In this document: in pieces, positions 765 to 1,177 of the stretch
Numbering within the stretch: position 1 is the stretch's first letter
Layout: every line of letters begins with the position of its first letter
From: Escherichia coli
GTDB lineage: Bacteria; Pseudomonadota; Gammaproteobacteria; Enterobacterales; Enterobacteriaceae
DNA length: 3,892 nucleotides
Direction: 5' to 3' (one strand)
Assembly: GCF_003334815.1 (NCBI RefSeq)
Contig: NZ_QOWO01000079.1
Program-made: the position numbers and the translations under genes
Notes under the pieces: model-generated
Databases searched by the model: none
What the model was told of the DNA's origin: nothing
Seen by the model: only the letters and a program-made list of their open reading frames with translations

Positions 765-792
765 TTGTTGCAGATACGAAAGTCGTTAGAAT
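765..792 (+). promoter_or_regulatory. Candidate sigma70 promoter of the hok/mok (pndA/pndC) mRNA
   Basis: -35-like TTGTTG (765-770), 16-bp spacer, -10 TAGAAT (787-792). It sits 7-8 nt upstream of GGGCGCTTGAGG (799-810), which resembles the conserved 5' end of hok-family mRNAs. Confidence 0.45.
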
Positions 793-842
793 AGCTGCGG
801 GCGCTTGAGGCTGTATGCCGAAAGCGTTTTGTGGACGGTATA

Positions 843-902
843 CAGCAGAAAGCCCCTGGAGATTTTTTTATCAATCAACCAAGGGCTCTACTGTAATGCT
901 TC
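843..902 (-). ncRNA. pndB: Candidate Sok/PndB antisense RNA (~60 nt) complementary to the mok translation-initiation region
   Basis: Minus-strand perfect -10 TATAAT (plus coords 909-914) places the start near 901-902. The transcript would cover the mok ATG (896-898) and its SD (881-885). A 9-bp stem (879-887 with 851-859, including one G-U pair) is followed by a U-rich tract (CUUUCUGCUGU). Boundaries are approximate. Confidence 0.5.
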
Positions 903-1099
903 GACAACATTATAGTAGCCCGATAACCGCCGTAAGGCAATGGAGGGGCTATGATGCCACAGCGAACGTTTTTAATGATGTTAATCGTCATCTGTGTGAC
1001 GATTCTGTGTTTTGTCTGGATGGTGAGGGATTCGCTTTGCGTACTCCGGCTCCAGCAGGGAAACACAGTGCTTGTGGCAACGTTAGCCTACGAAGTTAA
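896..1099 (+). CDS. pndC: Mok/PndC-like overlapping reading frame (translational coupler for the toxin gene)
   Basis: ORF in a different frame that overlaps almost the whole toxin gene, as in hok/mok loci. ATG at 896 gives 67 aa, with AAGGG 10 nt upstream. The longer six-frame ORF from 815 would start only ~16 nt into the transcript and is less likely. Confidence 0.5.
   Translation: MLRQHYSSPITAVRQWRGYDATANVFNDVNRHLCDDSVFCLDGEGFALRTPAPAGKHSACGNVSLRS
909..940 (-). promoter_or_regulatory. Candidate sok/pndB promoter
   Basis: Perfect TATAAT on the minus strand (909-914). The only TTG-containing -35 candidate (TTGCCT, 935-940) is 20 bp away, which is suboptimal spacing. Confidence 0.4.
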
Positions 1100-1106
1100 A
1101 CGTTAA
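951..1106 (+). CDS. pndA: Hok-family type I toxin (PndA-like small membrane toxin), 51 aa (50 aa if the second ATG at 954 is used)
   Basis: Translation MMPQRTFLMMLIVICVTILCFVWMVRDSLCVLRLQQGNTVLVATLAYEVKR has the Hok/Gef architecture: one N-terminal TM helix, a conserved R-D/K-SLC motif and a TLAYE C-terminus. It most closely matches PndA as I recall it. GGAGG at 942-946 is 7 nt before the ATG at 954. Confidence 0.85.
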   Translation: MMPQRTFLMMLIVICVTILCFVWMVRDSLCVLRLQQGNTVLVATLAYEVKR

Positions 1107-1116
1107 CGGGCAACAC

Positions 1117-1146
1117 GGCGGCAGGTTTTCTGCCGCCGCTTTGTTG
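1117..1146 (+). terminator. GC-rich hairpin with U-rich tail in the hok 3' UTR (stability or terminator element)
   Basis: CGGCGGCAG (1117-1125), loop GTTTT, CTGCCGCCG (1131-1139), followed by CTTTGTTG. It lies 11 nt after the hok stop codon. Confidence 0.45.
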
Positions 1147-1156
1147 CGAAGGCTGA

Positions 1157-1169
1157 CCTCATTGCGCCC
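1157..1169 (+). promoter_or_regulatory. fbi-like 3' element of the hok mRNA, complementary to its 5' end
   Basis: CCTCATTGCGCCC (1157-1169) pairs with GGGCGCTTGAGG (799-810): 6 bp GGGCGC/GCGCCC plus 4 bp GAGG/CCTC around a small internal loop. This is the arrangement described for fold-back inhibition in hok mRNAs. Confidence 0.45.
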
Positions 1170-1177
1170 TTTCTTCT

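Follow-up and report, generated by a model that had tools for sequence, protein, structure and literature searches.

The question raised by positions 765 to 1175 of the stretch of DNA analysed here, a window of 3892 nt from Escherichia coli (RefSeq assembly GCF_003334815.1, contig NZ_QOWO01000079.1), is which hok-type toxin–antitoxin (TA) module they carry, whether all its parts are present, and whether it belongs to its surroundings or was brought there by the insertion sequence (IS) copies that bracket it. A first-pass annotation, made from the letters alone, had proposed a complete hok/mok/sok-type module carried as cargo between these copies. The segment 765–1175 very probably is pnd (pndA/pndC/pndB), a type I TA module of IncI1 plasmids from the hok/sok family, and its sequence is intact. 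Judged by nucleotide identity and gene order, it is the pnd locus itself and more than a merely pnd-like one; as such it is an already known, ordinary plasmid-addiction module, and nothing about it is new.

The identification as pnd itself follows from the near-identity to ColIb-P9, R64 and R483, from the IncI1 gene order and from the literature on pndBCA. The trbA-pnd region of the window (138–1484, 1347 nt) showed no mismatch to ColIb-P9 (NC_002122) and 10 mismatches to R64drd, and the 377-nt mRNA region was 99.7% identical to that of R64. The 751 nt from 700 to 1450 were 100% identical to ColIb-P9 and were found at 99% identity or more in 887 plasmids, nearly all of them conjugative and from Escherichia, Salmonella or Shigella; one of the 100% matches in this search was annotated as "pndA: Protein PndA". 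The resemblance of the toxin to PndA of IncI and IncB plasmids, suggested in the first pass, was confirmed by a match of 152 of 153 nt to the pndA coding sequence of R483. The gene order trbC-trbB-trbA, Hok/Gef gene and 83-aa open reading frame (ORF) was found in ColIb-P9, R64drd, RCS85_pI and CP024481, and the trbA start codon, at 662 of the window on the minus strand, occupies the same position beside pnd in all of them. In a published survey pndBCA was present in 125 of 125 IncI1 plasmids examined, with pndB identical throughout (PMC5330492), and pnd sits within the conserved transfer locus (PMC7602700); trbA is its neighbour in every IncI1 plasmid (PMC5330492).

The places of the module in complete E. 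coli genomes were on plasmids in 1835 of 1873 cases (98%) and on the chromosome in the other 38. The plasmid provenance supposed earlier is thus strongly favoured and is likely for this fragment, its proof being beyond the reach of the window alone. The homology block common to the IncK/B/O/Z variants extends from about 760 to about 1170; 765–1175 is therefore a good delimitation, and all four parts of the module first placed there (toxin, overlapping frame, antisense promoter and complementary mRNA ends) were found close to the positions originally given. The features of the module, with the evidence for each, are as follows (SD, Shine–Dalgarno sequence; MFE, minimum free energy).

765–792, plus strand: predicted promoter of the pndC/pndA mRNA (-35 TTGTTG at 765–770, 16-nt spacer, -10 TAGAAT at 787–792).
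799–1175, plus strand: predicted full-length pnd mRNA (Rfam RF01794, fold, homology).
799–810, plus strand: tac box, the 5' translational-activator element, GGGCGCTTGAGG (MFE pairing, invariance, covariation).
851–887, plus strand: leader hairpin, in which CCC at 853–855 (ucb-like) sequesters the pndC SD GGG at 883–885 (MFE pair table, Rfam consensus structure).
896–1099, plus strand: pndC, mok-like leader frame of 67 codons, overlapping pndA in another frame (ORF list, conservation).
954–1106, plus strand: pndA, 50-aa membrane toxin of the Hok/Gef family, Val30 allele (Pfam PF01848, SD GGAGG at 942–946).
1116–1138, plus strand: GC-rich 3' hairpin CGGCGGCAGG-TTT-TCTGCCGCCG (terminator-like scan; stem invariant and changes confined to the loop in variants).
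1157–1169, plus strand: fbi box, the fold-back inhibition element, CCTCATTGCGCCC (MFE pairing, duplex energy, covariation).
909–940, minus strand: candidate pndB promoter, inside pndC (-35 TTGCCT from 940 to 935, 17 nt, -10 TACTAT from 917 to 912, with an overlapping TATAAT from 914 to 909).
843–905, minus strand: predicted PndB antisense RNA of about 63 nt (fold, complementarity; ends placed to within 3 nt on either side).

The toxin ORF (951 or 954 to 1106, plus strand) matched the Pfam family HOK_GEF (PF01848) with an i-Evalue of 9.3e-12, residues 8–47 aligning with model positions 3–42 of 42; this was the comparison with the Hok family that the first-pass annotation had proposed as a check. 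Its length had been given as 50 or 51 aa. The upstream ATG at 951 is replaced by GCG in the IncK/B/O/Z variants, so the conserved start is 954 and the product has 50 aa; the spacing to GGAGG at 942–946 is likewise better for ATG 954 than for ATG 951. The assignment to the Hok family therefore stood and the length of 51 aa did not. The product is identical to WP_001303307.1 of ColIb-P9 (RefSeq "Hok/Gef family protein", 50 aa).

The single difference from R483 pndA lies at 1042, T in the window and G in R483, and changes Gly30 to Val; PndA of R64 also has Gly30, and that of ColIb-P9 has Val30, as in the window. Val30 directly follows the conserved Cys and corresponds to E32 of Hok, a residue that is usually conserved. 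When the residues conserved in the family logo (M1, C16, T18, L30, C31, E32 and E41; bioRxiv 10.1101/2025.08.07.668861) were compared by sequence inspection, five of the seven were found to be kept, as M1, C14, T16, L28 and C29. In place of E32 and E41 the window has V30 and V39, in keeping with other PndA alleles (with G30). The Val30 allele occurs on about 1000 or more contigs and, at 100% identity, on hundreds of plasmids, and the exact peptide of the window is unique sequence 1416 in the catalogue of the Hok survey (bioRxiv 10.1101/2025.08.07.668861).

Membership of HokA (NCBIfam equivalog NF007290) was considered and rejected, since 67.2 bits fall short of the curated cutoff of 89. With 42.6 bits, the generic Hok subfamily model NF007279 did not reach its cutoff of 73 either, and no PndA-specific model was present among the NCBIfam matches. 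As a separate observation, the codon of Tyr46 is TAC followed by G (TACG, 1089–1092 of the window). TACG is the motif described for TadA A-to-I editing, which in hokB, and in other hok genes at the C-terminal Tyr, recodes Tyr as Cys (bioRxiv 10.1101/2025.08.07.668861); were pndA edited at Tyr46, a second Cys would arise near the C-terminus.

The open frame that overlaps the toxin gene spans 815–1099, and its homologous mok-type start is ATG 896, 58 nt upstream of the toxin ATG at 954. The same offset separates the annotated mokB and hokB of K-12 and flmC and flmA of F, in agreement with the mok-like frame suspected at the outset, which corresponds to 896–1099. The start context, ATGCTTCGACAACAT, is nearly like that of the F flm counterpart, ATGCTTAGACAACAT. 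ATG 896 is invariant among the variants, and in each of the 10 with an intact 5' end the frame stays open as far as the same stop.

The match of Rfam RF01794 to the toxin mRNA at 799–956 was complete (model positions 1–157) and scored 131.7 bits (E 4.3e-31; gathering score 59); the covariance-model search that had been suggested earlier thus also gave a clear result. The 5' end of the mRNA would lie at 799/800, by homology to the R1 hok mRNA start GGCGCUU, and the 3' end at about 1170–1175, as suggested by the end of conservation and a U-rich tract. The MFE fold of 799–1175 had an energy of -161.3 kcal/mol (z -7.85) and paired 799–804 with 1164–1169 and 806–809 with 1158–1161, that is, the tac box with the fbi box. 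The energy of the tac/fbi duplex was -21.7 kcal/mol, compared with -15.3 ± 2.4 for shuffled sequences; 27 of 2000 shuffles reach that energy, so it is modestly unusual.

Covariation among 11 pnd-type variants was uninformative for these boxes because both are invariant. The boxes change together in srnB and flmA of F and in hokB of K-12 (GGGCGC / GCGCCC in pnd, GGGUGUCUG / CAGACACCC in srnB, GGGUGCC / GGCACCC in hokB). In an alignment of five family members, 85% of the cells paired, as against 37–56% for slid controls, and 4 of 12 pairs were changed on both sides. The complementarity of the 5' and 3' mRNA ends, also proposed in the first pass, is thereby borne out both in the MFE fold and by covariation across the family. 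The tac box has two alternative partners, a local one at 817–834 (-11.4 kcal/mol) and a ucb-like one at 843–862 (-10.2 kcal/mol), and the order of energies, with tac/fbi well below the two nearly equal alternatives, fits the switch model. In the full-length fold the pndC AUG (896–898) pairs with 908–910, and removal of fbi refolds the 5' end of the mRNA in silico. The hairpin at 1116–1138 would be the 3' protective stem expected of a processed, translatable mRNA, by analogy with R1 hok (PMC9841398).

Both promoters were located by a relaxed hexamer scan together with conservation, after a strict scan had come up empty. For the mRNA promoter, the -10 and the GATTGT..GC -35 region are kept in the IncI1, IncI-gamma, IncK2/Z and B/O/K/Z variants, the sequence farther upstream being unrelated. 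The candidate pndB promoter matched the consensus at 8–9 of 12 positions and every base of it is invariant in 11 variants, in line with the antisense promoter predicted inside mok at the start. Its position is equivalent to that of the annotated sokB, whose start is 10 nt inside mokB. The predicted PndB, for which a target length of 63 nt was deduced from percentages in PMC3562002, folds into one hairpin (-29.8 kcal/mol, z -5.9), with 11 unpaired nt at its 5' end and a U-rich 3' end. It covers both the SD (881–887) and the AUG (896–898) of pndC, and its terminator hairpin is the opposite strand of the DNA of the leader hairpin, 851–887.

A side observation concerns the naming of the Rfam family. 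RF01794 (157 nt) is called "sok antitoxin", and its match lies on the plus strand, where it spans the leader of the toxin mRNA between the tac box and the toxin AUG, and not on the minus strand, that of the predicted antisense RNA of about 63 nt (843–905); automated annotation would therefore misplace the antitoxin, on the wrong strand and with the wrong size.

The way in which the module would work can be outlined by homology with R1 hok/sok and R483 pnd (PMC9841398, PMC4147584). The constitutive promoter at 765–792 would give a stable mRNA of about 375 nt. In the full-length molecule the tac box is predicted, from the folding in silico and the covariation, to pair with fbi, and the pndC SD and AUG to be buried in local hairpins; locked in this way, the mRNA would be neither translated nor bound by the antisense RNA. 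Slow trimming of the 3' end back to the 1116–1138 hairpin would remove fbi, and the 5' end would then, as homology suggests, switch to its alternative partners and expose the pndC start, a switch described for the mRNA of R1 hok (PMC9841398). In cells carrying the plasmid, the unstable PndB of about 63 nt would pair with the pndC ribosome-binding region, to which its complementarity was computed here. As reported in the literature, this pairing would block translation of pndC, and hence the coupled translation of pndA, and the duplex would be cut by RNase III. In cells that lose the DNA, again following the literature, PndB would decay first, PndA would be made, and the 50-aa membrane peptide would kill the cell.

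Compared with the IncI1 pnd loci of R483, R64 and ColIb-P9, the window has the same parts (promoter, tac, pndC, pndB, pndA, 3' hairpin and fbi) and the same neighbours, trbA upstream and the 83-aa ORF downstream. It differs from R483 and R64, and agrees with ColIb-P9, at residue 30, and it differs from the IncI1 references in that trbA is cut by an IS629-like element and the backbone past 1484 is replaced by an IS66-family element. The pnd loci of IncB/O/K/Z plasmids (R16 type) are about 89–92% identical over the whole mRNA and have identical tac, fbi, pndC start, antisense promoter and 3' hairpin stem; their toxin differs by 5–6 amino acids (for example I13V and L31F/L33I/Q34E), they are without the upstream ATG at 951, and their flanks are different.

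The hok/sok system of R1 and flm of F (flmA/B/C) share with the window the architecture, the inferred mechanism, the Rfam family, the antisense RNA that covers the mok start, the 58-nt offset from mok to hok, and the same 5' box, GGCGCUUGAGG, paired with a 3' box. Their toxin has 52 aa and is much further from PndA than one pnd allele is from another. The R1 hok leader is longer, with the mok start at nt 116–118 as against about nt 97–98 in pnd of the window, and hok and flm have a separate terminator hairpin after fbi, which pnd is without. The hokB/mokB/sokB locus of K-12 has the same annotated three-gene layout and offsets, and its tac/fbi pairing is kept through compensatory changes; it is chromosomal, it is reported to be without post-segregational killing, and HokB requires Y29C RNA editing for full toxicity (bioRxiv 10.1101/2025.08.07.668861).

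Two further variants were seen among the pnd matches. In the Salmonella plasmid pCFSAN076166 (151–534 of the extracted segment), the promoter, the tac box and the first hairpin are replaced by unrelated sequence, a 1-nt insertion shortens the pndC frame to 19 codons, the toxin has a 6-nt insertion, and the locus adjoins a gene for an MqsA antitoxin; this variant looks like a decaying copy. In some E. coli IncI plasmids the 411-nt module matches as two pieces across 633 nt, which implies an internal insertion of about 220 nt.

Whether the module is at home in its surroundings depends on the sequences that flank it, which are the following (IRR and IRL, right and left terminal inverted repeat).

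1–137, plus strand: IRR end of an IS3-family element of 1310 bp (IS629/IS1203-like), with its last base exactly at 137 (terminal repeat, annotation).
138–662, minus strand: trbA', codons 1–175 of trbA, an IncI1 conjugation gene of 402 codons, cut off by the IS at 137/138.
1178–1429, minus strand: conserved hypothetical ORF of 83 aa, WP_001291965.1, convergent with pnd (ORF list, annotation).
1485–3755, plus strand: defective IS66-family element (ISCro1/IS679-like) with IRL GTAAGCG... (ORFs, NCBIfam, comparison with an intact copy).
3756–3892, minus strand: second IRR end of the same IS3-family element, inverted (137-nt repeat).

The terminal 137-nt arms of the window are 100% complementary, and both of these inward-facing ends are IRR, the end at the transposase C-terminus. 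A full copy of the element, of 1310 bp, is present in RCS85_pI, the plasmid of strain ECOR 3, at 9619–10928 of the extracted segment; similar copies are annotated as IS3 family or IS1203 family, and its ends match those of IS629/IS1203. In the IS66-family element, tnpA is intact at 1570–2220 and the tnpA, tnpB and tnpC assignments are supported by NCBIfam. By comparison with the intact copy, an extra G at 2548 frameshifts tnpB (169 aa by read-through in place of 115), a 17-nt deletion after 3272 frameshifts and splits tnpC, and the element is truncated at 3755 by the IS3-family element; it is dead in the window. Its insertion at 1484/1485 is common to at least 17 IncI plasmids.

The window from 138 to 3892, including the right junction at 3755/3756, is 100% identical to RCS85_pI, in which trbA is intact; the two IS629-like insertions were therefore separate events. 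The left junction between the IS and trbA (137/138) had no counterpart in a search of 72,556 plasmids and 5,426 complete E. coli genomes. An assembly chimera at this point was considered and set aside, since the break falls exactly at the terminal base of the IS and shows no microhomology, and a real insertion is more likely. Because trbA is required for conjugative transfer (PMC10286972) and is truncated here, the backbone is predicted to be conjugation-defective if this is its sole trbA copy. As to the 83-aa ORF, its stop codon lies 8 nt past the fbi box; it was found on 1000 or more contigs, is always beside pnd in IncI1 plasmids, and gave no Pfam or NCBIfam match.

The reading of pnd as cargo of an IS-bracketed segment, put forward in the first-pass annotation, found no support in these data. 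The order trbA'-pnd-orf83 is the native IncI1 synteny; insertion sequences successively invaded an IncI1 backbone, and there is no sign that the bracketed segment moved as a unit. That the 3.6 kb enclosed by the inverted IS629-like copies form a mobile composite transposon is most improbable, suggestive as the two identical IS ends in inverted orientation and the two junctions exactly at an IS terminus may be. Its contents stand in native IncI1 order with 100% identity to ColIb-P9 and RCS85_pI, and would include half of a conjugation gene as well as an IS66-family element that is dead; RCS85_pI has the right junction together with an intact trbA, and the absence of the left junction from all other records leaves the segment without a second context. 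Transposition of IS3-family elements proceeds through a circle junction of IRL and IRR, and two like ends, both IRR, cannot form one. It is very unlikely that the IS629-bracketed piece (trbA'-pnd-orf83-IS66') moved out of an IncI1 plasmid into another replicon or the chromosome, with pnd stabilising, or addicting, its new host DNA; if it did, the relocated piece would capture insertion sequences in the act of redistributing a type I TA module. Equally hard to credit as the composite transposon is the view that the module is not a plasmid addiction module but a hok-type locus of the chromosome (hokA-E, for example), perhaps an inactive one. The 38 chromosomal places mentioned above, the HokA model as the best NCBIfam match and the nearby IS elements point that way, IS elements close to hok genes being typical of the K-12 chromosome. 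Against it, the HokA score stays under its curated cutoff, 98% of the places are on plasmids, and the flanks consist, at 100% identity, of the transfer gene trbA of IncI1 plasmids and an ORF specific to them.

For the pnd module of an IncI1 plasmid, to which the evidence points, a role in plasmid maintenance is documented in related plasmids. The native pnd locus of R483 mediates post-segregational killing and its PndA is toxic (bioRxiv 10.1101/2025.08.07.668861), and R64 pnd is reported to be needed for maintenance (Furuya & Komano 1996, cited in PMC4083329). Several results weigh against this reading of the module and its mechanism. Deletion of pnd alone left the stability of pCT (PMC4083329) and of pESBL (PMC7602700) unreduced, and the contribution of pnd to maintenance can therefore be small. 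The Val30 allele was not among the toxicity constructs that a search of the preprint's supplement turned up, the tested R483 and R64 alleles having Gly30. The strict sigma-70 scan gave no promoter, both promoters of the module matching the consensus at only 8–9 of 12 positions; the covariation test comprised only the 5 sequences, aligned by hand; and in MFE and partition-function folds of 3'-truncated RNAs (ends 1130–1143) the accessibility of the pndC SD and AUG was not raised.

It is accordingly conceivable, if unlikely, that the module is intact in sequence and functionally neutral here, a passenger of the IncI1 backbone, Val30 being attenuated or other maintenance systems being sufficient. 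The deletion results in pCT and pESBL and the G30V change relative to the tested alleles would agree with this, as would the decay of the surrounding backbone, with trbA truncated and three lesions in the IS66-family copy. The frequency of Val30, which is the ColIb-P9 allele, on contigs and on plasmids with 100% identity is unlike that of a decaying gene, and all the regulatory elements are invariant. In addition, alanine at each of the conserved logo positions, including E32, the equivalent of residue 30, leaves Hok R1 toxic (bioRxiv 10.1101/2025.08.07.668861), and the requirement reported for R64 pnd (cited in PMC4083329) also speaks for function.

Read as the IncI1 pnd locus, the module is a textbook addiction module, present in essentially every IncI1 plasmid, and it matters here for little more than correct annotation; it identifies the contig as a fragment derived from IncI1. 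The trbA-pndC region serves in IncI1 typing. In plasmid-curing designs, pnd has been a target (PMC5330492).

Outside the window, about 1 kb downstream of pnd in ColIb-P9 (NC_002122; 4884–5590 of the extracted segment), a second match to RF01794 was found at 5084–5225 (67.5 bits). This locus has a pnd-like promoter and 75 nt that are 93% identical to the PndB region, and no toxin ORF. An orphan leader is one possible reading of it, an additional antisense gene another. The same region of ColIb-P9 gave three AgrB-like antisense matches, two above the gathering score (50.7 and 59.4 bits) and one below it (37.7 bits), and R64drd has in this region dqlB, annotated as a type I toxin of the DinQ-like kind. 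Downstream of pnd, the IncI1 backbone looks like a cluster of type I TA elements, and the IS66-family insertion at 1485 removes this region from the window.

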